Shown: positions 2,526 through 25,987, counted from the first letter of the stretch. The stretch: 43,169 bases of DNA from Candidatus Omnitrophota bacterium (GCA_023818745.1 JAMWBY010000001.1:1-43169), one strand, 5' to 3'. Notes: a model not told the origin generated them from the sequence alone. Program-made: numbers and translations.

Positions 2526-4499
2526 TTAAAAATCTATTACAAGAAATGACATATATGGAATTCTAAATTTGCTTTTCCATATATTGTTAGTTACTTTTAA
2601 AACCCTTCCAGGAATTGGTTTTTCAAGAGGTTTAAGAAGGGTTATTATTTTAGGGGTTTTTTTATAATCTATATTTACAAAAGCAGGGTCCGGACAGCCA
2701 TTTAATATACATAATATCTCTTCTTTCCCTTTTTTGAAAAACATAGGTATTAGATACGAACTTCCTGATACCAAAGGAAAAGGAATTTGATTTTTGTAGA
2801 GAAATTTAATAATCTTATGAGCCATAGTTTGTCTAAAGAAGTTAAAATCAGAAGGAACAACTATACCTACTCTTCCTCCTTTATTATTCTCATAGAGAGT
2901 AATTCCAGGACCTATAACTTTTTTTTCAGGTGTAATAACTTCTGTCCATACAATTGTTTCTTTAAATGGTTTAAATACATTAAATTTGGGAAGCAGGTTT
3001 ACACTGCAGTAAATATCCTCTCTTACTCCACTTTCACTATTTTTAACAACTTCAAGCGAATAATTTGATTCTTCCCTTGTAAGTGTCTGCTTATACTTAA
3101 CTCCTATATATTTTTCAAATCCTCTTTTACACAGTATTTTTGCACTCTCACCATCAAGTAGAAGTCCACTTTTTAACATTTTAAAAATTTCATTATCATC
3201 AAAACTCCAAGCATTATTTCCAAAGATAGCATTGACTTTCTGAATTTCTGAGCAGGCAGGAATACCATAAGATAGGAGAAATTTCCATGTAAAGGAAGGG
3301 TCTACAACGAGTTCAGCAAAACTTTTCCCTTCAACAGTTTCCACCTTTTCTGCTGCATTTTCTTTCCATGGAATACCCACACCATAAAGTGAATATTCGT
3401 TAGAAAACTTATCACATATCCATGAAAGTGAATTATAACTGTTACTTAATAATTCACCAATATTTTTTTCTTCATTTGGAGTGTTACCAACAAAAGGAAA
3501 AAGATTTAATAAAAGCGCGTCAGAACCAAAAAACATAGCTAATGCCATTTCTGACCAAGTTTGAGTATCTGACTTGCTCCATGTAGTATAAGGAAAATTT
3601 TCTATCTCTGGTTCTACTTCACAATAAATTGGTCTAAGTTGTTTCTGAATATCAAGCATCATAATAGAATAAATTTTATTCCTACCAAGATCTTCCTGAT
3701 AAGGAGCAAAGTGAGGTCTGTGAACAACCTTATTATTTATTGTAAGGGATTCAAAAAGTTCATGCCATCTTCTACCTTCAATACTATGAAGTGAAGGATG
3801 AGAACTCATAAGTCCTAATTTTGTTTTCCCTTTGGAACTTTTTTCCACAGCATTTCTAATATTTCTGGCAACATCTAATTGTATTTCTCTCCATATTTCT
3901 AACCATATTTTTCGCCAAGGATGGGGCTTACCAGGTTGTAAAATCTTTTTTACTATATCTTTTCTTGAAACTTTCTTTCCTATTTTTTCAGAGAATTTTT
4001 TAAGGATTTGATTTTCAAAACCACCACCCCATGTAAGAGGAGCATGATTGTGATACCGGAAATCATCTTCAATCCAAATTGTATTAAACCCCAATTTTGC
4101 AAATCTACTGTAAAGATTACAAATATACTTTTTCCAGTTTTTATCGGCAAAAGAAGCAGTAGCATTACTTACCTCTCCATAGGGAGAAACCATTGGTTTA
4201 AATCTTCTATCCGTAGGAAATTTTCTTCCTCTGTCACAGTGAAGAACGGTCATCCATGGATTTAAACTTACCTTTATTCCTTTTTTTTCAATTATTTCTT
4301 TTGCTGTTTTGATTGTTTCAAACCATAAATTCTCTTCTTTTTCTGAAAGAAGCCCGTTATTCCATTCCTCTCCAGCAAAAAATAGAACCACTTCTTCTAT
4401 TCTATGTTTAATACAAAATTCTGTCAGTATTTCTGCATCTTTCTTAACATTTATTCCTGGAATTATTTGAAATCGCAAATGATATTTTACCTTTTTCAT
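2526..4499 (-). CDS. Large cytoplasmic protein of unknown function. It may be a TIM-barrel carbohydrate-active enzyme.
   Basis: Uninterrupted 657-aa ORF with no signal peptide. The block NTIWIEDDFRYHNH and alternating beta/alpha-like segments suggest a glycosidase-like barrel. The neighbourhood is sugar-related. I do not recognise the family. Confidence 0.3.
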   Translation of the reverse strand: MKKVKYHLRFQIIPGINVKKDAEILTEFCIKHRIEEVVLFFAGEEWNNGLLSEKEENLWFETIKTAKEIIEKKGIKVSLNPWMTVLHCDRGRKFPTDRRFKPMVSPYGEVSNATASFADKNWKKYICNLYSRFAKLGFNTIWIEDDFRYHNHAPLTWGGGFENQILKKFSEKIGKKVSRKDIVKKILQPGKPHPWRKIWLEIWREIQLDVARNIRNAVEKSSKGKTKLGLMSSHPSLHSIEGRRWHELFESLTINNKVVHRPHFAPYQEDLGRNKIYSIMMLDIQKQLRPIYCEVEPEIENFPYTTWSKSDTQTWSEMALAMFFGSDALLLNLFPFVGNTPNEEKNIGELLSNSYNSLSWICDKFSNEYSLYGVGIPWKENAAEKVETVEGKSFAELVVDPSFTWKFLLSYGIPACSEIQKVNAIFGNNAWSFDDNEIFKMLKSGLLLDGESAKILCKRGFEKYIGVKYKQTLTREESNYSLEVVKNSESGVREDIYCSVNLLPKFNVFKPFKETIVWTEVITPEKKVIGPGITLYENNKGGRVGIVVPSDFNFFRQTMAHKIIKFLYKNQIPFPLVSGSSYLIPMFFKKGKEEILCILNGCPDPAFVNIDYKKTPKIITLLKPLEKPIPGRVLKVTNNIWKSKFRIPYMSFLVIDF

Positions 4500-4652: not shown

Positions 4653-5663
4653 ATGGAAAAAATAACGATAAAAGATATTGCAAAAAAAGCAGGTGTCTCT
4701 CCAGCAGTAGTATCTATTGTATTAAATAATAAAAGAAACACAAAAATATTTGTAAGTGAAGAAAAAAGAAAAAGAATACTTGAAATTGCAAAAAGAGAAA
4801 AATACACTCCAAACAAATATGCAAAAGCACTTGCTACAGGAAGGACAAATACGATAGGAATAATAATTCAACATCTTGAACCTTATACTTCATATTTATT
4901 GGAAAATTTACAGAAATATGCTTTAAAGAAAGATTATGAACTGATGCTTTATCTTATAGAAGATAAAATTGAAAAGGAAAAAGAAATTTTTGAAAAGATT
5001 GCATATGGAACTACAGATGGTTTGATAATTACACATTTTCTAAGTAATCCAGAAGAATATTTAAATTATGCAAAATTATATAAAATAAAAATTGTAACTA
5101 TTACTCCACCTATTGATGATTTACCCTGTGTATATTTTGATGAAAAAATTGCGGGAGAAATATCTGCTAAATATTTAATAAAAACAGGTTGCAAAAGGTT
5201 ATGTGTTGCGGGTGGATATAAGGATTCTGAAAGGTTTAAAGGTTTTATTGAATATGCGAAAAAGTATAACATAACAGTTAATGAAATTATAGATGATAAA
5301 GTTAGAGGATATTTTGAAGATGGATTTGAAATTGCAAAAAGGATATTAAATTTGAAAAAATTACCAGATGGGATTTTTGCATTTAATGATACAATTGCTG
5401 GAGTTATTATTTCAGAATTTAACAAAAGAGGAATAAAAATTCCAGATGAAGTTTCAATTATAGGATGTGATAATACTCAACTTTGTTACTATACTACTCC
5501 AAATCTAACCAGTATAGAGATAAAAACAAAAGAAAGAGCAAAGATTGCGATTGATATGATTATAGACATAATAAATGGCAAAGAAATAAAAATGAAACAG
5601 ATTATTTTAAAACCAGAGTTAGTTATTAGAAATTCAACAAGAAAAAAGGAGGTGATATTATGA
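4653..5663 (+). CDS. LacI-family transcriptional regulator
   Basis: N-terminal [26 protein letters not shown] followed by a periplasmic-binding-protein-like sugar-sensor domain ([16 protein letters not shown]). Confidence 0.92.
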
Positions 5664-6301
5664 AAAGGAAAGGTTTTACGTTAATTGAGTTGCTTGTGGT
5701 AGTGGCGATAATTGCGATTTTAGCAGCGATGTTACTTCCAGCACTTTCTAAAGCAAGAGAAAGGGCAAGACAGGCGGTATGTATGAGCAACTTAAAACAA
5801 ATAGGTCTTACTCTTCTAATGTATGTAGAGGATTACGATGGTTATTTACCAACTGCAAGAGTAGGAACGACTTCTAATACTTGGTTTTCTTTAATATCCA
5901 AAATCACAATTATATGGGTAGGTTATACAACATGGTATCCTAAAGAGCCAGCAATTCCTTTTTATTTCTGGAGATGTCCTTCTGCAATAAAAATAAAAGG
6001 AGAAACATTTGATTGGTATCCTTTTTATAAAGTGAGTTATACATGGAATAGTATGGCAAATTATAAAAAATTAAATAGAAACCCAAATCCTTCAAAATCA
6101 CCTATAGTTTATGATGGGAAATCTTTATATGGAACAGGTTATTATGGATATTCAGACCTCAGAAATTATGCATCACCGAAGAGACACCTTGAAGGAATGA
6201 ATTTACTTTTTCTTGATGGACATGTTGAATGGTATCCAGATAACCTATGGCCAAGAACAGGAAGCGGAAGTAGATACGCTGGTTTTATATGGACATGGTA
6301 A
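5660..6301 (+). CDS. Prepilin-type N-terminal cleavage/methylation protein, DUF1559 / H-X9-DG family (pseudopilin-like)
   Basis: Class III signal [29 protein letters not shown]. The C-terminal [17 protein letters not shown] fits H-X9-DG. The start overlaps the LacI stop (ATGA), with an AAGGAGG SD. Confidence 0.9.
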
Positions 6302-9244: not shown

Positions 9245-10330
9245 TTAAGTAAAATCAAAATAATCAAGTTTATCAATGCCTGAAGGACGAGGATTTAGTT
9301 CAAGAAATATAATTTTTAAATTTTTTCCATCTGTTTCAAGTAAAATATCCATTCCTCCTATTTTAAGTTTTTCTTTTAATCCTTTATTGAAGAATTTGAA
9401 AATTTTTTTGATTTCTGAAATGATTTGAATTTTATGTGTCTCTGTTAGAATAAATTTTTCAAAACCTTTCTCTATTCTATAATAAAGATTATTTTTTATA
9501 TCTTTGAAGTTTAAAATTTTACCACCTTTATAAGGAGAAGTAATTGGAAATTTTTCATCTGGACTTATTTCAAAAAAACACCAGTTTGAAAAAATTTTTC
9601 TCTTATACTCAAAAATAAAAAATCTTAAAACAACATCTCTGTATCCTAAAATTTTTTCATCTTCTTTAAAGTAATAAACATTTCCTCTTTTTTCCTTTAT
9701 AATAACTGGTTGTTCTGGTAAAATACTCATAACTGTTTCAATTAAAAAATTAAAGTTTTTAATTATTTCTGTTTTTGTAAAAAAATATGTTTGTTTTCCC
9801 TCTGTTCCATAATTTGGCTGAATATAAAAACCCTGTGTTTTTTGATTTTTAATAAATTTCTCAATTTTTTCTTTTAAATTTTTTCTGTCTTTAAATTCAA
9901 TAAGAAGCGATGAAGGCGTATAAATTTTAAATTTTCTTATTTTTTCAATTGTTTTGTATTTATTAGAGGATAAAAAGGAAACAAAAAATGGATTAAGTTG
10001 ATTTATTTTATATTTTTTTAGATACTCAGATATTTTTTGATGATTCTGATGTTCAAATTCAGGATTAAGTGATAAGATAATTGAAAAATGAAAGTAATCT
10101 AAGTTTTTAATTTTTGTGGTCTGAATATTAAAATTATCATCAACAAAGAGTATATTATCCGAATCAAAACTTTTCAACCACCTTTTTGCATAGAAATTTA
10201 AAAGAAGACCTTCTTTCAAACAGAAAAACTTAAAAAATGAAAGGACTCTCTTTATATATTCTTCATCAACCTCATAAATTAGAAGTAAGTTTCTCAACTT
10301 TCTCTTTATATATTTTCCCTCTTTCTGCAA
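9245..10330 (-). CDS. ATP-grasp-like ligase (stand-alone)
   Basis: The order of blocks fits an ATP-grasp fold: FYIQPNYGTEGKQ (glycine-rich loop-like), VIIKEK, RDVVLRFFIF, GGMDILLE...IIFLELNPRPSG (E-x-N metal motif). The annotated start overlaps the giant ORF by 59 nt. Confidence 0.5.
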   Translation of the reverse strand: MQKEGKYIKRKLRNLLLIYEVDEEYIKRVLSFFKFFCLKEGLLLNFYAKRWLKSFDSDNILFVDDNFNIQTTKIKNLDYFHFSIILSLNPEFEHQNHQKISEYLKKYKINQLNPFFVSFLSSNKYKTIEKIRKFKIYTPSSLLIEFKDRKNLKEKIEKFIKNQKTQGFYIQPNYGTEGKQTYFFTKTEIIKNFNFLIETVMSILPEQPVIIKEKRGNVYYFKEDEKILGYRDVVLRFFIFEYKRKIFSNWCFFEISPDEKFPITSPYKGGKILNFKDIKNNLYYRIEKGFEKFILTETHKIQIISEIKKIFKFFNKGLKEKLKIGGMDILLETDGKNLKIIFLELNPRPSGIDKLDYFDFT

Positions 10331-13300
10331 GACAACTAAATATTATGAAAACACCTTCTCCTTTTCTTTCAGGAGGTAATCTATCATTATGTGGTCGCCA
10401 CAATCCTGCGCCTGGATTTGGTTCTATTTTACAAATTACTAAACTTGGAACTTCATTCCCATTTTCATCATAAATTTTTCTTGGATTTCCATCTTCATCA
10501 AAATAAGATACTGAAAGAACCTTTTTATTTTTGTCAATTCTTGGTATTTCATTTCCATTTTCATCATAAATTTTAACTTTTGTTGGATATCCATTTTCAT
10601 CATAAAGAGGTATAAGTTTTCCTTTTTTCTCATCATAAACATACTTTAAGTTTTCAAATTCATCTATTAAAAATACAGGCATATAATCACCCATTTCATA
10701 AGGAATACCTGTAATTGGAAAATCTGTTAAATCAGTAAATATTTCTTCATATTTAACCTTTCCTTTAAATTCTGGATGTATTTTTAGATATTCTTCAAGA
10801 ACAAATTTCCAATTTCTTTCAAGATATTTTTGCTGTGATTCTAAACTTTTATAAACCGCTTTTGTTATTTGTTCTCTTAATGTTTTTCTATATTTTGGAT
10901 GAATAATGTCGTCTGTATATTCATATAAAAGCCCGCCCTGACCTACATTTGCTATTCCTCTTGTGCTTATTACTGTTATATGATGAGAAATCTTATATCC
11001 ATCTTTTCCAAGAACCACAATCTGCCTAAAATAGGAATATAGGGGTGTTTGTGGTTCTTTATCAATCAATACAGGAATACCAATTTTGGCAAACCTTTCA
11101 ACAACATTTTCAAGAAATTCTTTTGTATAAAGTTGTCTTACCCTTGATTGTATTACTTCCTGAATTACAGCATTATCAGTTAATGAAATTTCATAAACAA
11201 GGTCTGTTAATTTATCAACATTTTCCTGTAAATATTTTTTATCTTCTCTTACAGGTAAAATCATTGATTTTCTTCCGCCTGATTCTTTTTCACATTTAAC
11301 AATAATTGTATCATATTTTTGGGCAAGAGACATTATTTTCTCTCTTATTTTTATTTTTGCTTTTTCTTTAAATTTTGCTGTATCTTCCATATACCAGTTT
11401 TCCTGTTCAGGCGCTTTAACTCCAGAACCTTCAAGCATTTTTGGTAATTCACATTTAAGATGTGTTGCAGCTTCCCATATTAGTGGCTGAATAATTGGAA
11501 TTTTAAAATGGTCAATGTATGGTCTTAAAGGATGTGTAAAGTGGAAGAAAATTGAATGAAGAATCACTGGTTTTTTAAATGAAATGAAAACAAGGTCTGT
11601 TTTGTTTTCTGTTATATTTCTATATTTTCCCCTTAATAATTCAAGTTCTTCTTTCGCTGGATAAATCATACCTTCATTTATCAATAGAAATTTATTTCCT
11701 TTTTTCTCTTCCACAGATGGAAATGCTGATATGAAAAGATTTATATTGTTTTTTGCAAATTTAGGACCTTCTTGTAGAGCAACCGGTACTGTTGTGTTTC
11801 CATAAGGATAGATAATACCTACATTTACTCTTTCATTCACTTTTAAATCTTCTGGGTCAACATCCATAAAAATTTCTGGATATCCAAAACCTTCATATTT
11901 AAGAACAACTGCATCTCTTATTCTTGCATAATGGAACCAGAAAATTTCTTCTCTTGTTTCTCCTCTTACTCCTATTGCCATTTTATTTTTCTCAAAATTA
12001 CCTATATATAAATCCTTATACTCAATTGAATAATTTCTCAAAGGTGTCTTTTCACAAACAAGGTAAACCAAATGAGAATAAAGGAATCTATGATATTTAA
12101 ATGCAAGTTGAAATTTAATTTCCCTATGTAGTTTTTCAAAATATGCAGACCTTTCTTTATGATAATGATAAGGTAAGTAGTCAAAAATGTGACTGTTTAC
12201 TGTTCTATCAAGGAATTTAGCAATAGCAGCATTAAATTCATCTTCTGTATAACAAACTGAAACAAGTTCAAGCAAAAACGCAATATCAATCAACTCAAGA
12301 GCCATACAAACTTTTTCATAAAGTAATAGGTCTTTTTCTTTAAATCTTGGTAGATTAGAAATTGTTGTTGCAAAATTGATATAATTTTCTTCTTTTATTT
12401 CTGTAAGTTCAAAAAAGTTTTCAACTTCATTTAAAACTGTTTCTTTTTCTTTAATTTCTTTTGTTTCTTGTATAAGGTGCTTAATAAAATTTTTACTTAT
12501 TCCAAGAAATTCTCCAAATGTTTCGGGTGGAATTATTCTATCTGGTTTTCCAAGAGTATCTTTTGCTTTTTTATAAATTTCTTCAAGAGATAGATTTTTT
12601 AAAGACGATTCATCAAATTTTTTATAACTTTCTTTCTTTTTTTGTAGATTTTTTATTTTTTCAAATTCTTTTTTCCTTTCCTGCCATCTTGCAAGTGTCT
12701 GTGTTTGAATTTCTGCTGCTTTTAATGAACCAGCAAGTCCTGTACTTATTTCTTCATATCTTTTTTTCAATTCAGGAATATATATTGGTCTGAAATATTG
12801 TTCTATGATAAAATCAATTTCCTTTCTCTCAAATAACTGCCTTTTATTATCCTTTAAGATTTTCTTTAATTTTTTCTCAAATTCCAATCTTAATTCTTCC
12901 ACCTCTTTTTTTGTGTATTTTCCATTTAGTAAAAATATTCCACCAAAAATTAACCACTTTCCAAAATCAATATATTTCCAGTTATCTTCTTTGGATAAGT
13001 TGACAAATGTTTCTGTATAATATTTATCTTTAAGACCCCAAGTGTTTATTCTTTTTGATTGTTGTTCTTCTAAAAGGACTTGATCTACTTTGTTTTCTAA
13101 TATAATATAATTTTTTATTTTTGCAAGTGTATCAAATAATGCTTGTTTGCTTTCACCTATTATTGAATTTAATAATTCTTCACTTAAACTCCTTTCTTTT
13201 TCCATCTCTTTTTTCCAGTTTTCAATCGTTTCTCTTCCTATTCCAAGACAGCCATAAACTGCTTTTTCTTCAATAGCAAAAAGTTCTTTAACCTTCCTTC

Positions 13301-16300
13301 TACAATTTGGATTATTGTAAGCAAAAGATGGTCTTCTTGCACCTGAAGTTCCGTCAGCAAAAACAAGTGCACTGAAAGGTCTATCTTTTTTAATTAAATA
13401 TAAAAATTCTGGTAAATTATCAATAAGTTGTAATAATTCAGGGTCAGGTATTCCAAGGTCAACAAAATCAACCCCTCTAACTGCGACTTTATAAGATGAA
13501 AATGGTCCTCTTTTATCAATGACAAGTAGATGAATTTTCCCTTTTAGGTCATTATAAATTTTATTTATTTCTTCATAACTTCTTTCTCTTATCCCAACCC
13601 ATTTTCTTATATCTCCACCATAAATAATTGCATTTGTTTTAATAAGATTTTCATCAAGCCCAATTTTGTAAAGGTATTCAAGAACTTTATTTTTTATTTC
13701 TTCAAGTCCTGAATTAGGCACATGATTTAGTATATCTGAACCAGTACATTTTCCAACAATTCTTATATCCGCAGGTGGTGTAAAATTTTTAAATATTTCT
13801 TTTATTATTTCTCTTCCTTCAGGGTCAATGTCAAGCAATATATGTTTTTCCGCAACTAAACTATAAATTTCAAGTTTTCTACAGCCAGCACTAAATCTTA
13901 CATCTGATACAGGAATTAATCTTCCATCTTCAATTTCGCTCTCCTTATAACTTACATCCATAACTCCCACCAATTCATCATCAGGCAAAATAAGTTTATT
14001 TTTCTCTCTTGCTTTTTTAACAAGGTCATATATAAGTTTTACTTTTCTAAAAGGACCAATCCTATTTATTTCTTCAAGTCCTTGTGCTTTTTTATTTACC
14101 CAGTAAGTTAGTTTAAACTCATTTATTCTCTCTTCCTCTCCTTCTGGAATAACTATTCCCATTTTTTCTAAAGTTATAGCAATCTGAGGTAATCTTGAAA
14201 GATATGTTGGCTGGCCAAAAATTTTGAAATATTCAGGATATCTTGTGTAAAGATATGATAGCGCTTTTCCTTCCCAGTCAATTTCAAGTTCAAAGTCAAA
14301 TCTCCATGCAAGTATTCTTCTCATATCTTCAATTACATTATTATGAAGTTTTTCTGGGATACCAAAAGAGTCCAATATTTTACTTGAGGTTTCTTTATCA
14401 ACAGCAGAAATTATAATTGCATACAGTAAACTAAATTCTTTTGGAACACAAAATCCACCATATGTCTCACCAGATGGAAGTACTATTCTATCTCCTCTCA
14501 TATTCCATTGATTTCTGAAGAACTCAAATTCTCCGAATCTTAAAACATCAAGATTAATGCCTGCTGTCAATGAAAGATAGAAAACACCACCTCTTGAGAA
14601 AAAGTTTTCCCCAACCTTTAAAAATTCTGCTATTCTTGTTGAAGGGATAATAGTTGGGCCAGCAATGTTATATAAAGAATAAAGAGATTTTCCAGAAATA
14701 GCAGAATGGGTATCTACTCCACCAACCCATTTAGGAATATCCCTTACTGAGTAAACCTCTTTTGCTCCAAGATCAACCCTGCTTGGTGTATAAAGTAAAT
14801 TATATTTTTTATAACCACCTTTTGCTTCATATCTATATATAGGTTGATTTAGTTTTTCAAGAAGACCTTCTTCTACAATAATTTTTCTTTGAGCATTTAG
14901 TTTTGAATATACAGGATGGAGATAATCTTTTATAAAGGAAGATACATATTTGGTAAGATTATATTTTTTTATCAAATCTTCTCTTAAATTTTTTAATATT
15001 TCTGCCTGTTGTTCTGTCAATTTATTTGTATTTAAATTTTCTTTTATTTCAGGTGGTAATTGATCTACAATTTCTTGAATTTCTTTCGCTTTGAAATTTT
15101 CACTGTTTATATCCTGCCCTTCATTGATTAAGAGGATTGAAAGTTTTGCTACCTCTCTGCTTACTTCAGGATAGGCGAGAATAACCTTCATAACTCCTTC
15201 TTTAAAATTTTTATCATCATATTTAAAAACTTCACTCTCAAGATTATTTTCTTTTATAATTTTTTCACCAACTTTTATAATATTTTCTCTCCATATCTTT
15301 CTTCTCTGTTCAACCTTTTCAATTAAATTATTTCTTTTCAAAAAATTATAAAGAAGCATCCCTTCTTCAAGCCAGTTTTTTACATTAAATTCTGTTTCTC
15401 CTGGACCAAGAGTTGTTAAAACATGGACTGATGGCAAATCCCTTCTTTTTCTAAAAAAGTTATTCAGATAATCTGTTACATTTTTTTCAAGATTATATTT
15501 TTTAACAAGGTCTTCCAGTGATTTTTTAAGAGATTTTTTACTTTCATAGTTTTTAATTATTTCATCAATTATATCTTTTTTCTCTTCTATTAACTTTTTT
15601 ATTGCATCATATCTTAATATGTTTTCTCTTTCGCAAATTCTTCCAACTTCCTCAACCATATTCTCATACATTTTTTCTATTAAAACAGCACACATACTAA
15701 CTTCATTTTTATATTTTTCTAACTTTTTAATAAGTTCGTCTTCGCTTTTAAATTTCATTTTAAGCAAGTAAGCAATAAATTCTCTTGCAAGTTGTAAATG
15801 TTCTGTTAACATTACATCATTTATATTTTCAGCCCAATACTCAGCATTTGCTCTATACATTTCTTCAAGAATATTCCTCTGGACAAATGGTTTAAATTTA
15901 TATGAGCCATCTTCAGGAATAATCTCATATGACGCATATGCAGGAAGTGCTTCAATCCAATCATCACAAACTTTTAACCAGTTTTTCATTCCAGCAGTCA
16001 CATAAATATTTTCTCCTCCTTCGCTTAAAAGTTCATCTATATGAGGGTCTTCTCCAAAAAATGGGTCCATAAGTTCATTTAAAACACCCATAAATATAGC
16101 ATCTATTGGAAAGATTCTCTGGAAGAATACCATATAAATAGGAGGTCTCCCTTCTTCTTTTTCTACTTTTTCTTTGAAACTTTTTATTTCTTTTCTAATC
16201 TTATCTATAATTTTTCTATCATTTTCATAAGTTGTTTGTTTTAATTTACCTTCATCAAACTTTTGGATAAGTTTTAATTCATAATCAATAAGGTCCTTCT

Positions 16301-16931
16301 CTAACTTTTTTAATGTTCCAAGAATTTTTGATTTTGCAGATTCTTTTTCTCCTAATAAGTAATCAATTTCATTTATTTCTGTATGAAGATAAAAAGGCAT
16401 AAATTCCAGTTGTTTAATTTTATTCAATATTGCGTCTAAATTATCTTTAAATTTTTCTGTTTTTATAACCCGAGAATTTGCTAAAAGTAGCGCATCAATA
16501 TAAAAAGCCCTGCTAAATCTTCCACAAACAATTCTTCTATTTTCATTTCTTGCTTTCAAACTTATTTTATAAGCACATTCCTTATCCTGAATATCATTAT
16601 ATGTTTCATTTATTACTTCATATATTTTATTTCTTAATTGTTCAAGGTCTTTTTCTGTTTCAAGAATTTTTTTAACCATTCTTCTATCGTAAGATATTCC
16701 AAATGTTTTTCTTGCAATAAGCCATGCTGCAATTTTTTTCTTTTTTAATAAGTCCTCTCTTTCATAAGATAAAAATTCAATATACCAGTCACCATTTTCT
16801 TCCTTAATAAGTGCATTTTTAATTTTTTCTTTAAGAGAAATAGAAAATTTTTCATAATCTGAAAGTAATTTCAAAAGTTCTTCTTTAATTTCTGCCTTTT
16901 TTAATTTTTCTATAAATTTTTTGGCATCCAT
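10272..16931 (-). CDS. Giant 2219-aa multidomain protein with a helical N-region, a nucleotide-sugar-dehydrogenase-like core and a C-terminal ATP-grasp module
   Basis: Single uninterrupted ORF with a GGAG SD. aa 764-835 (STRIAEFLKVGENFFSRGG...GETYGGFCVPKEF) parallels [17 protein letters not shown]...GLGGHCIPID of the bona fide dehydrogenase at 40888..42234. aa ~1860-2219 carry ATP-grasp-like blocks: IIVKCEKESGGRKS, IANVGQGG, KIEPNPGAG. No signal peptide or TM segment is evident. Confidence 0.85.
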   Translation of the reverse strand: MDAKKFIEKLKKAEIKEELLKLLSDYEKFSISLKEKIKNALIKEENGDWYIEFLSYEREDLLKKKKIAAWLIARKTFGISYDRRMVKKILETEKDLEQLRNKIYEVINETYNDIQDKECAYKISLKARNENRRIVCGRFSRAFYIDALLLANSRVIKTEKFKDNLDAILNKIKQLEFMPFYLHTEINEIDYLLGEKESAKSKILGTLKKLEKDLIDYELKLIQKFDEGKLKQTTYENDRKIIDKIRKEIKSFKEKVEKEEGRPPIYMVFFQRIFPIDAIFMGVLNELMDPFFGEDPHIDELLSEGGENIYVTAGMKNWLKVCDDWIEALPAYASYEIIPEDGSYKFKPFVQRNILEEMYRANAEYWAENINDVMLTEHLQLAREFIAYLLKMKFKSEDELIKKLEKYKNEVSMCAVLIEKMYENMVEEVGRICERENILRYDAIKKLIEEKKDIIDEIIKNYESKKSLKKSLEDLVKKYNLEKNVTDYLNNFFRKRRDLPSVHVLTTLGPGETEFNVKNWLEEGMLLYNFLKRNNLIEKVEQRRKIWRENIIKVGEKIIKENNLESEVFKYDDKNFKEGVMKVILAYPEVSREVAKLSILLINEGQDINSENFKAKEIQEIVDQLPPEIKENLNTNKLTEQQAEILKNLREDLIKKYNLTKYVSSFIKDYLHPVYSKLNAQRKIIVEEGLLEKLNQPIYRYEAKGGYKKYNLLYTPSRVDLGAKEVYSVRDIPKWVGGVDTHSAISGKSLYSLYNIAGPTIIPSTRIAEFLKVGENFFSRGGVFYLSLTAGINLDVLRFGEFEFFRNQWNMRGDRIVLPSGETYGGFCVPKEFSLLYAIIISAVDKETSSKILDSFGIPEKLHNNVIEDMRRILAWRFDFELEIDWEGKALSYLYTRYPEYFKIFGQPTYLSRLPQIAITLEKMGIVIPEGEEERINEFKLTYWVNKKAQGLEEINRIGPFRKVKLIYDLVKKAREKNKLILPDDELVGVMDVSYKESEIEDGRLIPVSDVRFSAGCRKLEIYSLVAEKHILLDIDPEGREIIKEIFKNFTPPADIRIVGKCTGSDILNHVPNSGLEEIKNKVLEYLYKIGLDENLIKTNAIIYGGDIRKWVGIRERSYEEINKIYNDLKGKIHLLVIDKRGPFSSYKVAVRGVDFVDLGIPDPELLQLIDNLPEFLYLIKKDRPFSALVFADGTSGARRPSFAYNNPNCRRKVKELFAIEEKAVYGCLGIGRETIENWKKEMEKERSLSEELLNSIIGESKQALFDTLAKIKNYIILENKVDQVLLEEQQSKRINTWGLKDKYYTETFVNLSKEDNWKYIDFGKWLIFGGIFLLNGKYTKKEVEELRLEFEKKLKKILKDNKRQLFERKEIDFIIEQYFRPIYIPELKKRYEEISTGLAGSLKAAEIQTQTLARWQERKKEFEKIKNLQKKKESYKKFDESSLKNLSLEEIYKKAKDTLGKPDRIIPPETFGEFLGISKNFIKHLIQETKEIKEKETVLNEVENFFELTEIKEENYINFATTISNLPRFKEKDLLLYEKVCMALELIDIAFLLELVSVCYTEDEFNAAIAKFLDRTVNSHIFDYLPYHYHKERSAYFEKLHREIKFQLAFKYHRFLYSHLVYLVCEKTPLRNYSIEYKDLYIGNFEKNKMAIGVRGETREEIFWFHYARIRDAVVLKYEGFGYPEIFMDVDPEDLKVNERVNVGIIYPYGNTTVPVALQEGPKFAKNNINLFISAFPSVEEKKGNKFLLINEGMIYPAKEELELLRGKYRNITENKTDLVFISFKKPVILHSIFFHFTHPLRPYIDHFKIPIIQPLIWEAATHLKCELPKMLEGSGVKAPEQENWYMEDTAKFKEKAKIKIREKIMSLAQKYDTIIVKCEKESGGRKSMILPVREDKKYLQENVDKLTDLVYEISLTDNAVIQEVIQSRVRQLYTKEFLENVVERFAKIGIPVLIDKEPQTPLYSYFRQIVVLGKDGYKISHHITVISTRGIANVGQGGLLYEYTDDIIHPKYRKTLREQITKAVYKSLESQQKYLERNWKFVLEEYLKIHPEFKGKVKYEEIFTDLTDFPITGIPYEMGDYMPVFLIDEFENLKYVYDEKKGKLIPLYDENGYPTKVKIYDENGNEIPRIDKNKKVLSVSYFDEDGNPRKIYDENGNEVPSLVICKIEPNPGAGLWRPHNDRLPPERKGEGVFIIFSCLAERGKIYKEKVEKLTSNL

Positions 16932-16947: not shown

Positions 16948-18453
16948 TTAAATTATTTCAACTCCATTTACAGAATTACACACAAATGAAGCAAAATTTA
17001 AATTTCTTGATTTGTAATACTTTTTATATAAGATATCTAAAACATTTTCAACTTTGTTTTCTTCTACAAGTATTACTACACAACCTCCAAGTCCTGCTCC
17101 TGTTATTTTTGCACCTTTAACCCCTTTTATATTTTTAACTAAATCAACAATAAAGTCAACATCTTCCACACTGCATCTATAAGCACCTGGTTGATAATAA
17201 ATTTCTGTTTTTTTTCTTTCTTTTTCATCTTTGCTTTCAGAATGTTTTATAAGTTTTTTAAGATATTCATCACTTACTCTATAATTCCATTTTACCTTCT
17301 TTCCATTTTTTAAAAATTTTACAACTCTATCTCCATCGTGAGAAATATACATAAGTTTACCAAACTCGTTTATATTATTTTTTTTCAATAATTCAGAACA
17401 GATATCAGCCCGTGCACATTCACTAATCCCATAAAGTAATACATCTCTTATAGCATAACCGTTTTCAGGTTCTTTATGGGTTTCAAAAATTTTATCAAGT
17501 TCTTGATCCTTTAAGGTTTCATAAATTTCAAATCTTTTTAGTTTGTAAGGAAGATTAAGTAGAATATTATAAATAACTTTATCACTTCCCAGATTTTTTC
17601 TGTTTATATCTCTAATATAGTTAAGTTTAATTCCAATCTCTGGAAATTTATTCTTTATAAGTTTCAATCCAATTATATAAGTTGCTACTCTTTCGTTGAA
17701 GACATCTTTAGCATTTGCAGATTTTTTGGCTTCAATCAATGAATTACAGCATATGATTTTATAATTTTGAGGAAAAGGTATATATTCAACAACAAACGGA
17801 AAAAATCTTATATGAGTAATGTAATTTTCTCTCCCAAGAATCATAGAAGCATGGTCTCCACTTCCACCCCTTGTTCCAACAAACCATTCTGCTTCTCCAC
17901 ACATTTCAGGAAGTTCTTCTTTTTTTATAGGTAAATTATAAAGATTTATAATTGCACTCATAGTTGCTACTACTATTGCAGATGAAGAACTTAAACCTGC
18001 TCCTGTTGGAATTTCTCCATAAAAGAAAAGATTTACTCCACTAATATTCATTTTAGGAAATTTGTTCTGTAAATACAACACACCTGCTTTTATATAATTT
18101 GACCAATCACCTTGGACAATTTTTACTTTTCTTATAAAGTCAGTCCATATAATTCCTTTCTCTGGTAATTCTTCATCAATATCAAATATCTGTGATTTAT
18201 ATTTTTCTTCTTCAAAATCATAAACATAAACTTTTCTATCTTTTCTTTTCCCTGCTATACACCATAAATTTTTATCAATTGTAAGGGTATTTATAAAACC
18301 ACCTCTATGTTCAATATGAGTTCCAAGAAGGTTTATTCTTGCCGGGACTCTTATTAAAATGACATCTTCATCACAATTTTTTTCTATATATTTTTTAATC
18401 AGTTCTTTTAAATTCTCATTTTCTACTTTTTTCAAATATTCTGAACATTTCAT
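16948..18453 (-). CDS. GHMP-family sugar kinase, galactokinase-like (long form, 501 aa)
   Basis: Galactokinase-type N motif VPARINLLGTHIEHRGG, GHMP motif II PTGAGLSSSSA and motif III KITGAGLGGCVV. Confidence 0.85.
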   Translation of the reverse strand: MKCSEYLKKVENENLKELIKKYIEKNCDEDVILIRVPARINLLGTHIEHRGGFINTLTIDKNLWCIAGKRKDRKVYVYDFEEEKYKSQIFDIDEELPEKGIIWTDFIRKVKIVQGDWSNYIKAGVLYLQNKFPKMNISGVNLFFYGEIPTGAGLSSSSAIVVATMSAIINLYNLPIKKEELPEMCGEAEWFVGTRGGSGDHASMILGRENYITHIRFFPFVVEYIPFPQNYKIICCNSLIEAKKSANAKDVFNERVATYIIGLKLIKNKFPEIGIKLNYIRDINRKNLGSDKVIYNILLNLPYKLKRFEIYETLKDQELDKIFETHKEPENGYAIRDVLLYGISECARADICSELLKKNNINEFGKLMYISHDGDRVVKFLKNGKKVKWNYRVSDEYLKKLIKHSESKDEKERKKTEIYYQPGAYRCSVEDVDFIVDLVKNIKGVKGAKITGAGLGGCVVILVEENKVENVLDILYKKYYKSRNLNFASFVCNSVNGVEII

Positions 18454-18455
18454 TT

Positions 18456-19280
18456 TTATACTCCTGAATAAGCATTAAACCCTCCATCAACAGGAATTAC
18501 AGTTCCTGTAATAAAACTACCAGCATCAGAAGATAACAAAATACAAATTCCAACCAGTTCTTGTGGCTGTCCAAATCTTCCCATAGGTGTATGACTAACA
18601 ATTTTTTTCCCTCTTTCTGTTAAATTTCCGTTTTCATCAACTAATAAATATCTGTTTTGCTGGGTTAGAAAAAAACCAGGAGCAATTGCATTAACTCTTA
18701 ACTTATTATTGTATTCCATGGCAAAATGGACTGCAAGCCATTGTGTAAAATTACTTACGGCTGCTTTTGCTGCTGAATAACCAGGGATTCTCGTTAATGG
18801 TCTAAAAGCATTCATAGAAGATATATTTATTATTGAACCACCATTTTCATTCTTTATCATATATTTTCCAAAAGTTTGGCATGGTAAAATAGCACCGCCA
18901 AAAAGATTTAAAGCAACAACTTTTTCAAGTGCTGATAATGGTAAATCAAAAAAAGAAAGTTCTGTAGATGTAGTTGCTTCTTTTATATTCCCACCTGCTG
19001 AATTGATAAGAATGTCAATTTTACCATATTTATCAATTATTTTTTTTGCAACTTCTTCTATTAAACTTTTATCAAAAACATCAAGATATTCACCTTCTGC
19101 TTCTATACTTAATTTTCTTAAATTTTCTGCAGTTTCTATATAATTTTTAATATCAGCAATTATAACTTTTGCTCCTGCAAATCCAAGCCCTTTTGCTATT
19201 TCAGAACCAAGTATTCCACCACCTCCAGTAATCACTGCAACTTTATCTTTTAAAGAAAAAATTTTATTAATAAAATCCAT
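18456..19280 (-). CDS. Short-chain dehydrogenase/reductase (SDR), gluconate/mannonate-oxidoreductase-like
   Basis: TGGGGILG cofactor motif, NSAG, and catalytic YSAAKAAV (YxxxK). Confidence 0.9.
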   Translation of the reverse strand: MDFINKIFSLKDKVAVITGGGGILGSEIAKGLGFAGAKVIIADIKNYIETAENLRKLSIEAEGEYLDVFDKSLIEEVAKKIIDKYGKIDILINSAGGNIKEATTSTELSFFDLPLSALEKVVALNLFGGAILPCQTFGKYMIKNENGGSIINISSMNAFRPLTRIPGYSAAKAAVSNFTQWLAVHFAMEYNNKLRVNAIAPGFFLTQQNRYLLVDENGNLTERGKKIVSHTPMGRFGQPQELVGICILLSSDAGSFITGTVIPVDGGFNAYSGV

Positions 19281-20286
19281 TTTTTACCTCCATTTTTAGA
19301 TAACATAAAGGGTCTTCTTCTAAAAAATCATTATATAAACTATAAGCAAGCGCTCTACACCCTATACATTCATCAATTATACAATTTTTACATCTTCCTT
19401 TCAAAAACCTTTTATTTCTAATTTTGTTTAATACTTCTGAATTCAACCATATATCAATTAATTTTTCTTTTAATAGATTTCCAATAGATAAAGGTAATCT
19501 TCTACAAGGAAAAACTGTTCCATCTGGCATTATTGCAATTCCATCTTTTCCAACAATACATTGACTTCCATATAATTCATATTTTTTATCTTCAATTTTA
19601 ACCATATAACCTCTAAATTCTAAAATGTTTGTTGTATTAAAATCAACATTACAGATATTATGTAAAAATTTAGTTATTTCAAGCCAATTTTCAAAAGAAA
19701 TTGTTTCACTTTTCATATCTTTACCAAGTCCATATGGAACAAATCTTTCTATTACTAATCCATTAAAATTATAATTATTTGCAAAATCAAAAATTTTAAA
19801 AATCTGTTTCCAATTTTTTTCAAGTATTGTAAACATCAAAAATTTATCTGATTTAATATCTTTAATTTTCTCACATATTTTTATAAACCTTTCAAAATTT
19901 TTACCTCTAAAAAATTCGTATAATTCTTTATCAACAGATTCTGTTGAGATTTTTAATATAATTTTATTTTTTTCAATTTTGTAAATAACCTCGTCAGAAA
20001 GAAAAAAACCATTTGTTATTATTCCAAGATTTTTGGTTTGTTTTAAATTTAAAATTGTTTCAATCAATTTCCACATATTTTTGTGTAAAAATGGTTCTCC
20101 ACCAGTTATATCAATTACAAGTTTTCTATTTGTTTTTTTTAAAAAATCGCAAATATTAGAAAAAATATAAATAAGTTTTTCAAAAGAAAGGTCTTTGTCA
20201 GGAGAAAAATTATCCTGATAACAATGTTTGCATCTCAAATTACAATTGTCTGTTATATGCCATTGAATATGAAAGGTATTTTCCAT
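19267..20286 (-). CDS. Radical SAM enzyme with a C-terminal SPASM-type auxiliary-cluster domain
   Basis: CNLRCKHCY (CxxxCxxC) near the N-terminus and a GGEP motif. The C-terminal Cys-rich region reads CIVGKDG...PDGTVFPCRR...CKNCIIDECIGCRA. Confidence 0.88.
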   Translation of the reverse strand: MENTFHIQWHITDNCNLRCKHCYQDNFSPDKDLSFEKLIYIFSNICDFLKKTNRKLVIDITGGEPFLHKNMWKLIETILNLKQTKNLGIITNGFFLSDEVIYKIEKNKIILKISTESVDKELYEFFRGKNFERFIKICEKIKDIKSDKFLMFTILEKNWKQIFKIFDFANNYNFNGLVIERFVPYGLGKDMKSETISFENWLEITKFLHNICNVDFNTTNILEFRGYMVKIEDKKYELYGSQCIVGKDGIAIMPDGTVFPCRRLPLSIGNLLKEKLIDIWLNSEVLNKIRNKRFLKGRCKNCIIDECIGCRALAYSLYNDFLEEDPLCYLKMEVKNGFY

Positions 20287-23514: not shown

Positions 23515-24369
23515 TTGTTTAGAAATATATCGTTTGAAGCGATAAATATAAAAACTACATTACTTGAACAATTACGTCTTGCAAAATTAGGAAATTTTGA
23601 AGGAATAGATGTTTCAATTTTAGATATTTACGAATTTTCCAAAAATGATAAAGTTGACAAAATTAAAAATTTGATTGATAGTTTTGATTTAAAAATTGGT
23701 GGCTGGTGTTTACCCTTTAATATTGACGAAGAAGAAGATAAATTTAATCAAGATATAGAAAAACTTGAAGAATATTTAAAAGTTGCAAAAAAAATTTCTG
23801 CCTTCCGAATTTATACATGGATTGTTCCTTTTTCTGATAATTTAACATATAAAGAAAATTTTAAATTTCATTTAAAAAGAGCACAAAAAATATGTAAACT
23901 TATAGAAAAATATAATTGTAGAATCGGTTTTGAATTTGTAGGTACTAAAAGTTTAAGAATAAATCATAAATATGAATTTATTTGGAATCTTGAACAGTTG
24001 CTTGAATTTTTAAAAAAATTAAAAATGGAAAATACTGGAATCTTACTTGATAGTTGGCATCTATATGCATCTGATGGAAAAGTAGAAGATATTATGAAAT
24101 TAAAAAGCAATGACATAATTTATGTTCATATTAATGATGCTCCTGATTTACCTAAAGAGAAGTTGATTGACAATGAAAGATTTTTACCTGGAGAAACAGG
24201 AGTAATTAATTTAATTGGTTTTTTAAGAGCACTTAAAGAAATCAATTATGATGGCCCAGTAACTCCTGAACCATTCAATAAAAGAGTAAATGAGCTTCCA
24301 AATGAAATAAGTGTAAGATTAACTGGTGGATATCTCTTAAAAATTTGGGGAAAAGCATTTTCTCAATAA
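23515..24369 (+). CDS. Sugar phosphate isomerase/epimerase (xylose-isomerase-like TIM barrel, AP-endonuclease-2 superfamily)
   Basis: Blocks FEFVG, LLDSWH, VHINDAP and PEPF. TTG start 1 nt after the upstream stop, with a GAGGAGG SD. Confidence 0.75.
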   Translation: MFRNISFEAINIKTTLLEQLRLAKLGNFEGIDVSILDIYEFSKNDKVDKIKNLIDSFDLKIGGWCLPFNIDEEEDKFNQDIEKLEEYLKVAKKISAFRIYTWIVPFSDNLTYKENFKFHLKRAQKICKLIEKYNCRIGFEFVGTKSLRINHKYEFIWNLEQLLEFLKKLKMENTGILLDSWHLYASDGKVEDIMKLKSNDIIYVHINDAPDLPKEKLIDNERFLPGETGVINLIGFLRALKEINYDGPVTPEPFNKRVNELPNEISVRLTGGYLLKIWGKAFSQ

Positions 24370-24370
24370 T

Positions 24371-25987
24371 ATGAGTAGAATATATTTCCTCCAGTTTAAA
24401 AATGGTAAAGATGGTTTTGAAATTCAACCAGGTCTTACTATACTTGATTATGCTCAAAAATTAAAGATAAAAATAAATGCAGAATGTGGTGGAATTGGAA
24501 AATGTGGGAAATGTGTTGTAAGAATTGAAAAAGGTGAAGAAAATTTAAATCAACTTACCTCTGCAGAAAAAAAATTTGATCTTGGTCAAAAGTATAGATT
24601 GGCATGTCAAGCAAAAATTATTAAAGACCTTTCAGATATTGTTGTTTATATAAAAGATTTTGGAAAATATGAAATTTTGAAATATGGAAAAGGGAAAATA
24701 GTTGAAATATTTCCTTTTTATAAAAGAAAGGGGAATAATGTATATAAAAATGGAGAAAAAGTTGATATTTATAGAGGTGGAATTTATGGACTTGCAATAG
24801 ATATAGGAACTACAACTATTGTATTTGACATTGTTAATCTTGAAAACGGAAATATTATAGGAACAGTTGCAAAAACCAATCCACAGATTATTTATGGCAA
24901 TGATGTTATTTCAAGAATTGAGTATACTATGGTTGATAAAAAAGAAAAAAGATTTTTAAATGAGAAAGAAAGAAAAGAAAAAATTTATGAATTGCAAAAA
25001 GTGGTTGTAAAGATGATAAATGATGAGATAAAAAAATTTGATAAAGAGATATTTGATAAAATATACGAAGTTGTTATTGCTGGAAATTCAACAATGAGGA
25101 ATATATTTTTCATTATTGATGTATCCACACTTGGTAAAATACCTTACGAACCATTAAATCCAGAGAGTTTAATTAGAAATCCAGATGAAATAGAATTGAA
25201 AATGAATAAAAATGGAGAAATTTATGGTCTTCCTTTGATTGGGGGACATGTAGGTGCTGATATTGTTGCTGATATACTTGCTTCTGAAATTTATAATGAA
25301 GAAAATGTTTGTATGCTTGTAGATATAGGAACAAATGGAGAGGTGGTTATAGGAAATAAGGATAAACTTCTTGCGACATCTGCTGCTGCTGGAGGTGCTT
25401 TTGAGGGAGTAAATATAAGTTGTGGTGTTGGAGGAATAGAGGGAGCAATAAAAGAAATAAATATAATAAATGGAAAAGTGTATTATTCAACGATTGGAAA
25501 TAAATATCCTATTGGAATATGTGGCTCTGGTTTAATTGACTTATTAAGTGAGATGTTAAAAAATAAAATAATTGATGAAAAGGCACGACTTAAAGATGGA
25601 GAATTTTATATAACAGAAAATATAAAAATAACCCAATCGGATATTTTTCAACTTATAACTTCAAAATCAGCGATCAAAACAAGTTGGCAAGTCCTTTCCA
25701 AAATTTATCCTATTGATTTAAAAAATATTGATAAAATTTTTATTGCTGGTGGATTTGGAAATTTTATTAATGTTGATAGTGCTATAAGGATAGGATTAAT
25801 TCCAAATATTGATAAAAATAAAATTATTAAAATAGGAAATGGTTCACTTGAAGGCGCGAGAGAGGTTTTATTATGTTATAAAAAAAGAAAAATTGCTGAA
25901 GAGATTGCTCGAAAAACAAAACACATACGAACAAATGAAATAGAACCAAATTTTAACTACCTTCTTACAGAAAATATGTATTTTTAA
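24371..25987 (+). CDS. 2Fe-2S ferredoxin plus ASKHA ATPase fusion (DUF4445 / RACo-like reductive activase family)
   Basis: N-terminal CGGIGKCGKCVV ferredoxin-type cysteines. ASKHA phosphate motifs AIDIGTTTIV and VDIGTNGEV are present, plus GICGSG. Confidence 0.8.
   Translation: MSRIYFLQFKNGKDGFEIQPGLTILDYAQKLKIKINAECGGIGKCGKCVVRIEKGEENLNQLTSAEKKFDLGQKYRLACQAKIIKDLSDIVVYIKDFGKYEILKYGKGKIVEIFPFYKRKGNNVYKNGEKVDIYRGGIYGLAIDIGTTTIVFDIVNLENGNIIGTVAKTNPQIIYGNDVISRIEYTMVDKKEKRFLNEKERKEKIYELQKVVVKMINDEIKKFDKEIFDKIYEVVIAGNSTMRNIFFIIDVSTLGKIPYEPLNPESLIRNPDEIELKMNKNGEIYGLPLIGGHVGADIVADILASEIYNEENVCMLVDIGTNGEVVIGNKDKLLATSAAAGGAFEGVNISCGVGGIEGAIKEINIINGKVYYSTIGNKYPIGICGSGLIDLLSEMLKNKIIDEKARLKDGEFYITENIKITQSDIFQLITSKSAIKTSWQVLSKIYPIDLKNIDKIFIAGGFGNFINVDSAIRIGLIPNIDKNKIIKIGNGSLEGAREVLLCYKKRKIAEEIARKTKHIRTNEIEPNFNYLLTENMYF

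Follow-up and report, generated by a model that had tools for sequence, protein, structure and literature searches.

A giant open reading frame in a Candidatus Omnitrophota bacterium couples an expanded nucleotide-sugar dehydrogenase-like body to an ATP-grasp ligase within a conserved gene trio

The window analysed here is a stretch of 43,169 nucleotides (nt) from a Candidatus Omnitrophota bacterium (GCA_023818745.1 JAMWBY010000001.1:1-43169), and it carries a single unbroken open reading frame (ORF) of 2219 codons at 10272..16931, which we refer to as the giant. The cytoplasmic protein that it encodes combines a compact, greatly enlarged derivative of the nucleotide-sugar 6-dehydrogenase fold, in which the residues of covalent catalysis are kept (amino acids, aa, ~130-1240), with an ATP-grasp ligase of the Ddl/RimK/GshB type that is catalytically intact as judged by its motifs (aa ~1640-2219). 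A GHMP-type sugar kinase and a putative second ATP-grasp protein are encoded beside it, and the recurrence of this arrangement in distant genomes points to a conserved three-component cytoplasmic pathway. The giant system is a real and uncharacterised enzyme system, one that on present evidence brings no new principle.

The span and length of the ORF are as an earlier note on this DNA had given them; the strand is corrected here to minus, which is also the strand of every feature of the giant and its operon for which coordinates are given below. Translation is predicted to start at an ATG located 7 nt past a GGAG ribosome-binding site and 16 nt past the stop codon of the upstream gene, the G+C content equals that of the flanking genes, and the protein lacks a signal peptide and any credible membrane segment. 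Among 5.8 billion proteins, full-length colinear relatives were found in 42 protein clusters (26-89% identity, 96-100% coverage), almost all of them 2070-2560 aa long and annotated, where there is any annotation, as "hypothetical". An alignment of 36 relatives has a mean column identity of 50% and invariant residues along its full length, with conservation that is even from one end to the other. The giant is a real, conserved gene, and the concern that it might be an artefact of chimeric assembly is excluded in practice because dozens of assemblies made independently, one of them a closed 4.79-Mb chromosome, contain colinear homologues with 100% coverage. Two subfamilies can be told apart among the relatives: members of the main one are 34-89% identical to the window protein, those of the divergent one 24-25%. 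As had been supposed from the sequence alone, no described protein of this architecture came to light: the window giant has no significant Pfam match and no significant full-length match in Pfam, NCBIfam or the PDB, the hits in those searches being, apart from one weak match to TIGR03026 (below), noise (EF-hand, Gp44 lid), and literature searches for the domain combination returned no description of it.

The dehydrogenase-like character of the body is clearest in a block at aa 700-840 (14412..14834), which is homologous to the end of the N-domain and the catalytic central domain of the UDP-glucose/GDP-mannose dehydrogenase (UGDH) family. The NCBIfam model TIGR03026 matches the giant with E=8.3e-6 (aa 689-854 against profile positions 125-287), the profile of the giant family finds the nucleoside diphosphate (NDP)-N-acetylgalactosaminuronate (GalNAcA) dehydrogenase of PDB entry 3g79 with E=1.4e-4, and PF00984 matches one of 16 giant homologues (E=4.4e-6). 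The window also encodes a genuine UGDH (40888-42234, minus strand), and hhalign pairs aa 701-832 of the giant with residues 158-288 of that protein (probability 95%, P=3e-8), in agreement with the parallel between the two that had been noticed earlier at aa 764-835. The key residues of the block are LLYTPSRVDLG, in which Ser717 replaces a Glu, K772, N776 and GETYGGFC828VPK831E832. Six active-site residues are conserved in human UGDH, namely Thr131, Glu161, Lys220, Asn224, Cys276 and Asp280 (PMC3129169), and Glu161 serves as the base for thioester hydrolysis (PMC3265891). In the giant, Lys772, Asn776, Cys828, Lys831 and Glu832 (Asp in the divergent subfamily) align to UGDH catalytic residues and are invariant or nearly so; the retention of the nucleophile Cys828 (nt 14448-14450), claimed beforehand, holds in all 36 homologues. 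Thr/Ser312 is plausibly the equivalent of Thr131, and the position equivalent to Glu161 is Ser717, which is invariant in both subfamilies.

Downstream of this block, and beyond a helical expansion of the central domain in the model (aa 841-984; 13980..14411), lies an alpha/beta domain at aa 985-1240 (13212..13979) that corresponds to the UDP-binding C-terminal domain of UGDH by hhalign, alignment and model strands. Its signature, SYK996...D1010-V-R-F-S1014, is interrupted by a 9-aa insert and reads SYKESEIEDGRLIPVSDVRFS in the window protein, insert included; an ADGTSGARR motif is also present. The divergent subfamily is nearer to canonical UGDH. It reads GEGYGGYCVPKDG, and its hhalign alignment extends into the UDP-binding C-domain, where YKPDTQDGRFS is paired with YKKDVDDIRES. 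With the 36-sequence alignment as input, AlphaFold2 gives a compact and confident model of aa 60-1259 (predicted local distance difference test, pLDDT, 89; predicted template modelling score 0.86), with low pLDDT in the catalytic loop at aa 821-831. When this model was searched with Foldseek, the top 50 PDB matches were all members of the UGDH family (probability 0.7-0.99), each a UDP-Glc, UDP-ManNAc, TDP-Glc or NDP-GalNAcA dehydrogenase, with alignments that cover entire UGDH chains. The E values are only ~1e-2 and the template modelling (TM) scores are low, as is expected because the insertions swell the fold.

The N-terminal 700 aa had been described as charged and helical and without a recognisable family, which proves to be only partly so. 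The first 130 residues (16542..16931) form a helical cap whose start is weakly conserved, and they are followed in the model by a beta-alpha-beta, Rossmann-like core at aa 131-330 (15942..16541). The order of elements that DSSP assigns to aa 133-330 follows that of the UGDH N-domain (strand-helix-strand-helix-helix-strand-helix-helix-strand-helix-helix-strand), and the UGDH-like order resumes with the strands NLLY, WVGG and TII after an insertion of ~370 aa. In the core, G137-R-F-S-R-A142 comes after strand 1, Q271-R272 after strand 4 and T312 after strand 5, and its motifs are invariant in both subfamilies. Since the Foldseek alignment with 3g79 spans 989 columns, it must take in aa 133-330, and these residues are very likely a remodelled form of the nucleotide-binding Rossmann half of the dehydrogenase fold. 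The insertion itself (aa 331-699; 14835..15941) is modelled as a beta-hairpin with helical bundles, carries an invariant HVLTT strand (aa 503-507) and has no family match in profile library scans. Two other placements of dehydrogenase elements were tried and given up: the likeness of AIFMGVLNEL to the UGDH central helix is spurious, with an hhalign probability of only 4-7%, and HVLTTLGPGETE (aa 503-514) is ruled out as an NAD loop, the divergent subfamily reading HVLTTQSAGMT at what is a single strand. Direct hhalign comparison of aa 60-320, 100-720, 480-720 and 840-1260 with the UGDH of the window gave no match.

The body is tethered to the ligase by an all-helical linker or scaffold at aa 1241-1640 (12012..13211), which has no family match, just as had been anticipated for the ~400 aa between the two modules. 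Within it, the near-invariant motif TGLAGSLKAAEI (aa 1397-1408; 12708..12743), TG[IL]AGSLKA[VA]EE in the family, has S1402, K1404, A1405 and E1407 invariant. The motif lies immediately ahead of a helix of 35 residues, in the one extended loop that is of low confidence in the C-terminal model. Its likeness to the GxSL site of a carrier protein or to a Lys swinging arm is superficial, and no PP-binding, biotinyl or lipoyl match accompanies it. The remainder of the protein consists of a pre-ATP-grasp alpha/beta domain at aa 1641-1860 (11352..12011), with the segments YPYGNTTVPVA and FFHFTHPLRP, and of the ATP-grasp catalytic domains at aa 1861-2219 (10275..11351). An AlphaFold model of aa 1020-2219 has a pLDDT of 86.8, and ~45 of its 50 top Foldseek matches in the PDB are ATP-grasp enzymes (E to 5e-5, probability 1.0, best TM score by target 0.57), among them D-Ala-D-Ala and D-Ala-D-lactate ligases, MdnC, RimK, synapsin, DcsG, PurK and peptide ligases. 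This bears out the assignment that the earlier note had drawn from motifs, and the motifs quoted there lie at the residue numbers given for them: IIVKCEKESGGRK (1876-1888), IANVGQGG (1993-2000) and KIEPNPGAG (2168-2176) are invariant, as are K1879, E1883-S-G-G-R1887, N1995-VGQGG2000, D2082 and E2170-x-N2172 in the 36 sequences. We take NVGQGG to be the N-x-x-x-G-G motif of RimK and GshB. No curated ATP-grasp model of Pfam or NCBIfam is significant for the window giant, and the family profile finds no ATP-grasp enzyme in the PDB by sequence, so that the fold was detected by structure search alone. Five tandem YDxxG repeats with a period of 11-12 aa (aa 2099-2165; 10437..10637) are inserted just ahead of the Mg-binding strand, and their periodicity is kept in homologues.

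The operon of the window runs in the order radical SAM/SPASM gene, short-chain dehydrogenase/reductase (SDR), GHMP kinase, giant and a partner of ~350 aa. The partner gene (9245..10297) starts at a TTG at 10297 or 10330 and overlaps the stop codon of the giant. It is conserved in all loci examined, with 24-35% identity to the window copy, and in a six-frame hidden Markov model search of the loci it was found directly downstream of the giant, on the same strand, in 51 of the 56 that have enough DNA. The window partner has no Pfam, NCBIfam or PDB match; its motifs (QPNxGTEG, RGNV, ASxxRGG, LExNPRPxG), together with a weak match of the partner of one locus, L004, to ATPgrasp_ST (PF14397) and hhalign evidence that is likewise weak (probability of only 27%), suggest a very divergent stand-alone ATP-grasp protein. 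The kinase gene (16948..18453; 501 aa), 16 nt upstream of the giant, encodes a galactokinase- or N-acetylgalactosamine (GalNAc)-kinase-like GHMP kinase by library and PDB matches, with human GalNAc kinase (PDB 2a2c, 5e-30) and yeast Gal1/Gal3 as its closest solved relatives, and by the same six-frame search a kinase lies within 9 kb of the giant in 31 of 42 loci. These counts come from the kind of survey of orthologs and neighbours that had been proposed for this gene; the second ATP-grasp, the kinase, the triple fusions described next and the likely remodelled Rossmann half had no place in the earlier note.

The association of the three proteins is underscored by gene fusion. In a Pirellulaceae metagenome-assembled genome (MAG) the giant, the partner and the kinase form one ORF of 4208 aa, and fusions of giant and partner, or of giant, partner and kinase, recur among representative protein clusters with lengths of 3000-7944 aa, the triple fusion being found in locus L045 and at least eight such clusters. 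The single-chain trios (L045:8265-20891 and clusters P0061, P0064, P0065, P0068, P0097, P0098, P0105 and P0106; 3000-5700 aa) keep the order of the separate genes. Still larger versions, P0083 (7944 aa, locus L076), P0075, P0066 and P0054 (locus L077), bear extra domains: a mannitol dehydrogenase; a hexokinase; PFK, HD and HEAT domains with a CsrA-like segment; and GFO_IDH_MocA with an LbH/GMPPB_C-like segment. A common N-terminal module of ~540 aa (24-39% identity, without a Pfam match) precedes the giant part in P0066, P0074, P0075 and P0083. Pfam matches are wanting over long stretches of the largest versions, and no Pfam domain was found in the extra regions of P0105 or in aa 521-3376 of P0083.

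The neighbourhoods differ in their other genes. A PF00483 NTP-transferase adjoins the partner in Methylococcaceae loci, DUF2064/CofC-like genes are found in other loci, and GFO_IDH_MocA, xylose-isomerase-like TIM-barrel and SDR genes are further recurrent neighbours. The SDR of the window (18456..19280) belongs to the D-mannonate-oxidoreductase subfamily (345.9 bits against a cut-off of 281), and 13 giant loci have an SDR. Two unrelated oxidoreductases of the mannonate/mannitol class are tied to the giant, namely this SDR and the long-chain mannitol dehydrogenase domain in the C-terminal part of P0083. The first gene of the operon (19267..20286) encodes, by library match, a radical SAM/SPASM protein that resembles the ACGX-system and heme-synthase types, scoring far under their cut-offs, and the gene is confined to the four closest loci. 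No conserved glycosyltransferase, flippase, exporter or precursor peptide was found in the giant neighbourhoods, and a reading of the trio as a defence system is without support from PADLOC, whose models match neither the giant nor the partner nor the kinase.

A scan of one genome per species gave 69 giant loci, every one of them in MAGs or single-amplified genomes, and these span more than 15 phyla of bacteria, mostly uncultivated, as well as the archaeal Bathyarchaeota. Among the taxa are Omnitrophota, Ratteibacteria, Aminicenantes, Armatimonadota, Sumerlaeota, Latescibacterota, Aerophobetes, Hydrothermota, Planctomycetota, Elusimicrobia, Gemmatimonadota, Methylococcaceae, Myxococcales, Handelsmanbacteria and Bathyarchaeota, and the hosts are mostly anaerobic fermenters. 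An exhaustive HMMER search of 1.84 billion representative proteins with aa 690-1260 matched 86 clusters at E<=1e-3. The family is widely spread yet rare. In five Bathyarchaeota loci (L003, L015, L029, L037, L041) the giant is 39-46% identical to the bacterial proteins and the same partner and kinase are kept, which implies transfer across domains of life. In the divergent subfamily (loci L048, L049, L053, L059, L064, L072 and L075) the operon is preceded by regulators, comprising a PAS histidine kinase, a sigma-54-type response regulator and an HDOD protein, which suggests that expression there is conditional and sigma-54-dependent.

The reading that we prefer, tentatively and with slightly less than even confidence, is that the trio constitutes a three-enzyme cytoplasmic pathway in which a sugar is activated, its C6 is handled on a cysteine and one or more amines are ligated to the resulting carboxylate. 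The GHMP kinase would phosphorylate C1 of a galacto-configured sugar, possibly GalNAc or Gal, and the sugar-1-phosphate would then, at least in some lineages, be nucleotidylated. The dehydrogenase-like module may bind the sugar-1-phosphate or its NDP derivative and process C6 by way of a Cys828 thiohemiacetal or thioester; the fused ATP-grasp domain would activate the carboxylate as an acyl phosphate and couple an amine to it; and the partner ATP-grasp might attach a second residue. The predicted product would be an amide-linked uronate (a uronoyl-amino acid or peptide) serving as a metabolite or primer. The Glu-to-Ser717 replacement and the non-canonical GR[F/M]SRA loop suggest oxidation or release chemistry unlike that of classical UGDH. 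Fold and homology, gene linkage, the fusions and a theme of sugar activation speak for such a pathway. That theme is seen in the best PDB sequence match of the core, an NDP-GalNAcA dehydrogenase, in a kinase whose nearest solved relatives are human GalNAc kinase and yeast Gal1, in the NTP-transferase and DUF2064/CofC-like genes of some loci and in the LbH/GMPPB_C, GFO_IDH_MocA, hexokinase, PFK and mannitol-dehydrogenase domains fused in the largest versions. Chemical precedent exists in the ATP-grasp amidation of the C6 carboxylate of glucuronate by Cj1438C (PMC11800379). An amidated uronate had been proposed already, and of that proposal the carboxylate-amine ligation is compatible with the kinase and NTP-transferase context; that the core makes a uronic acid stays a proposal, in view of GR[F/M]SRA, of the acid missing after strand 2, of Ser717 and of the want of an NAD-binding domain by sequence and of a TupA match.

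A number of observations weigh against this pathway. No NAD-binding domain is detected by sequence, PF03721 matching none of 16 members; the position expected for GxGxxG is, on the proposed placement, occupied by the invariant GR[F/M]SRA, in which a bulky residue takes the place of the required second Gly; and strand 2 of the proposed core is followed by no conserved acid. The bulky residue and the missing acid mean that NAD-dependent oxidation by the body stays a proposal, and the Rossmann core itself is placed from DSSP order and one long Foldseek alignment rather than from coordinates. Since the Glu161 equivalent is Ser717, release of free uronate by hydrolysis may not occur. On the ligase side, the Pfam matches are marginal (GSH-S_ATP, 0.023, and ATPgrasp_ST, 0.067, each in two of 16 homologues) and the TupA-like PF14305 gave no match at E<=1 in 16 members. 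A nucleotidyltransferase is not conserved in the main subfamily.

The next most probable reading, although we consider it rather improbable, is that the body is redox-dead and acts as a sugar- or sugar-nucleotide-binding or acyl-carrying module, in which Cys828 would capture an acyl group from the ATP-grasp acyl phosphate and pass it on, or that it is a mere scaffold holding substrate for both ligases. It draws on the GR[F/M]SRA loop, the missing acid, the Glu-to-Ser717 replacement, the failure of PF03721 and the TIGR03026 score of the giant, which at 24.8 bits falls far short of the curated cut-off of 189.8, and further on the ~1000 aa of helical expansions around the fold. The strict invariance of Lys772, Asn776, Cys828, Lys831 and Asp/Glu832 is, however, hard to explain without related chemistry, for the corresponding Lys/Asn/Cys/Lys/Asp set consists of the residues of the oxyanion and hydride steps of UGDH (PMC3129169), and a non-classical mode of binding a dinucleotide, or NADP, could still be provided by the loop's invariant Arg residues. 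A bolder form of the three-enzyme pathway, which we would regard as improbable as matters stand, is that the trio is an unrecognised, horizontally spread pathway whose product, a cytoplasmic metabolite or polymer primer, would be of a new class. Without the hydrolytic Glu and the classical NAD loop, a UGDH-derived module with new chemistry would then resolve a Cys828 thioester by aminolysis, phosphorolysis or hand-over to the ATP-grasp sites, and not by water. If that were true, the giant would be a self-contained line that oxidises, activates and ligates sugar acids without carrier proteins.

Less probable again, and in our view decidedly unlikely, is that the ATP-grasp units ligate peptides or proteins in the way of RimK, MdnC or cyanophycin ligases and build or modify a peptide or poly-amino-acid chain, perhaps on the giant's own TG[IL]AGSLKAxE loop or on a sugar-acid primer, with the sugar enzymes supplying the primer. 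RimK, MdnC and Streptomyces peptide ligases are among the Foldseek neighbours, the N-x-x-x-G-G motif is common to RimK and GshB, an invariant motif lies in a disordered loop, a PGA_cap gene stands between giant and partner in L004, and there are two successive ligases. Against this, the neighbourhoods hold no precursor-peptide gene, conserved small ORF, protease or exporter, their content is dominated by the sugar kinase and oxidoreductases, and the carrier-like motif matches none of the three carrier families named above. A catabolic, energy-conserving role seems very unlikely: a C6 aldehyde would be converted to a thioester and cleaved by phosphate, the ATP-grasp unit working in reverse would make ATP, and the uronate would enter the nearby mannonate/2-keto-3-deoxygluconate (KDG) route. 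The replacement of Glu by Ser, the fermentative habit of most hosts, the mannitol/mannonate-dehydrogenase domain fused in P0083 and the presence in the window locus of genes for glycoside hydrolases, LacI, D-mannonate oxidoreductase, a KDG-kinase-like protein and 6PGDH would suit it, but the structural neighbours are ligases and not ADP-forming acyl-CoA or succinyl-CoA synthetases, the scheme does not need two ATP-grasp units, the catabolic neighbours are conserved only among close relatives, and the scheme lacks precedent. That the giant is an assembly chimera or a pseudogene-like run-on ORF, for which its unusual length is the only argument, can be dismissed with near certainty in the face of colinear homologues with 97-100% coverage in 42 protein clusters and, across independent projects, 69 genome loci, of uniform conservation over its length, confident and compact models, a good ribosome-binding site and tight operon spacing.

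Elsewhere in the window, a xylose-isomerase-like TIM-barrel gene is followed by one for a 2Fe-2S/ASKHA protein that resembles AcsV/RACo-like corrinoid activation proteins and scores below cut-off (23515-25987), an odd pair within a carbohydrate locus. Two ORFs are without a Pfam match (2526-4499, 657 aa; 31611-32681, 356 aa), and a DUF1559 protein with a prepilin-type N-terminal methylation motif (5660-6301) is typical of bacteria of the Planctomycetota-Verrucomicrobiota-Chlamydiota (PVC) group, which fits a source for the window of the Omnitrophota kind.

The interest of the giant is that it represents an uncharacterised enzyme family in which two well-understood folds occur in an arrangement found in no library or paper searched, and that the three-enzyme pathway suggested by its strict association with a sugar kinase and a second ligase, and by their repeated fusion, is concrete enough to be tested, with the natural fusions as constructs ready for expression. 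An amide-linked sugar acid, should that be the product, would represent a new class of metabolite in poorly known anaerobic lineages such as Omnitrophota, Aminicenantes, Latescibacterota and Bathyarchaeota, and if the Cys/Ser active site differs from that of UGDH, the catalytic range of a textbook enzyme family would be extended.

Compared with the UDP-glucose/GDP-mannose dehydrogenases (PF03721/PF00984/PF03720, TIGR03026; e.g., 3g79 and human UGDH), the body of the giant has by Foldseek the same three-part fold, and it shares with them the PxR motif, the Lys/Asn pair, the GGxC(x)PK[D/E] nucleophile loop and the YK...D.R.S signature of the C-domain. It differs in its size (~1240 aa against ~450), with three large insertions, in having GR[F/M]SRA at the expected GxGxxG and no NAD-binding domain that can be detected by sequence, in an invariant Ser in place of the catalytic Glu and in its fusion to an ATP-grasp ligase. 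The giant works like the curated UGDH family but is no member of it, since its score lies below the cut-off and both the NAD fingerprint and the catalytic Glu are missing. With ATP-grasp ligases such as D-Ala-D-Ala ligase, RimK, glutathione synthetase and MdnC, the giant shares the fold, including the pre-ATP-grasp domain, as well as the ATP-binding Lys and Gly-rich loop, N-x-x-x-G-G and the Mg ligands Asp...Glu-x-Asn; peculiar to the giant are the five-fold YDxxG insertion, the 400-aa helical tether to the dehydrogenase-like body and the pairing with a second ATP-grasp. Fold and catalytic residues place the giant in the ATP-grasp superfamily but in no curated family within it: the matches to PF14397, the sugar-transfer-associated ATP-grasp family, from two giant homologues and from the L004 partner have E of 0.07 or are marked as weak, and the window partner has none. 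The C-terminal domain of Cj1438 of Campylobacter jejuni, a TupA-like ATP-grasp amidoligase for capsular glucuronate (PMC11800379), modifies a polysaccharide during its growth and is joined to a glycosyltransferase of the GT2 family, whereas the giant has no TupA-like sequence match and is found among kinases and oxidoreductases, with no conserved glycosyltransferase, flippase or exporter. Cj1438 is nonetheless a precedent for amidation at C6 of a uronate, and in it, as in the giant, an ATP-grasp unit is fused to another sugar-handling domain.

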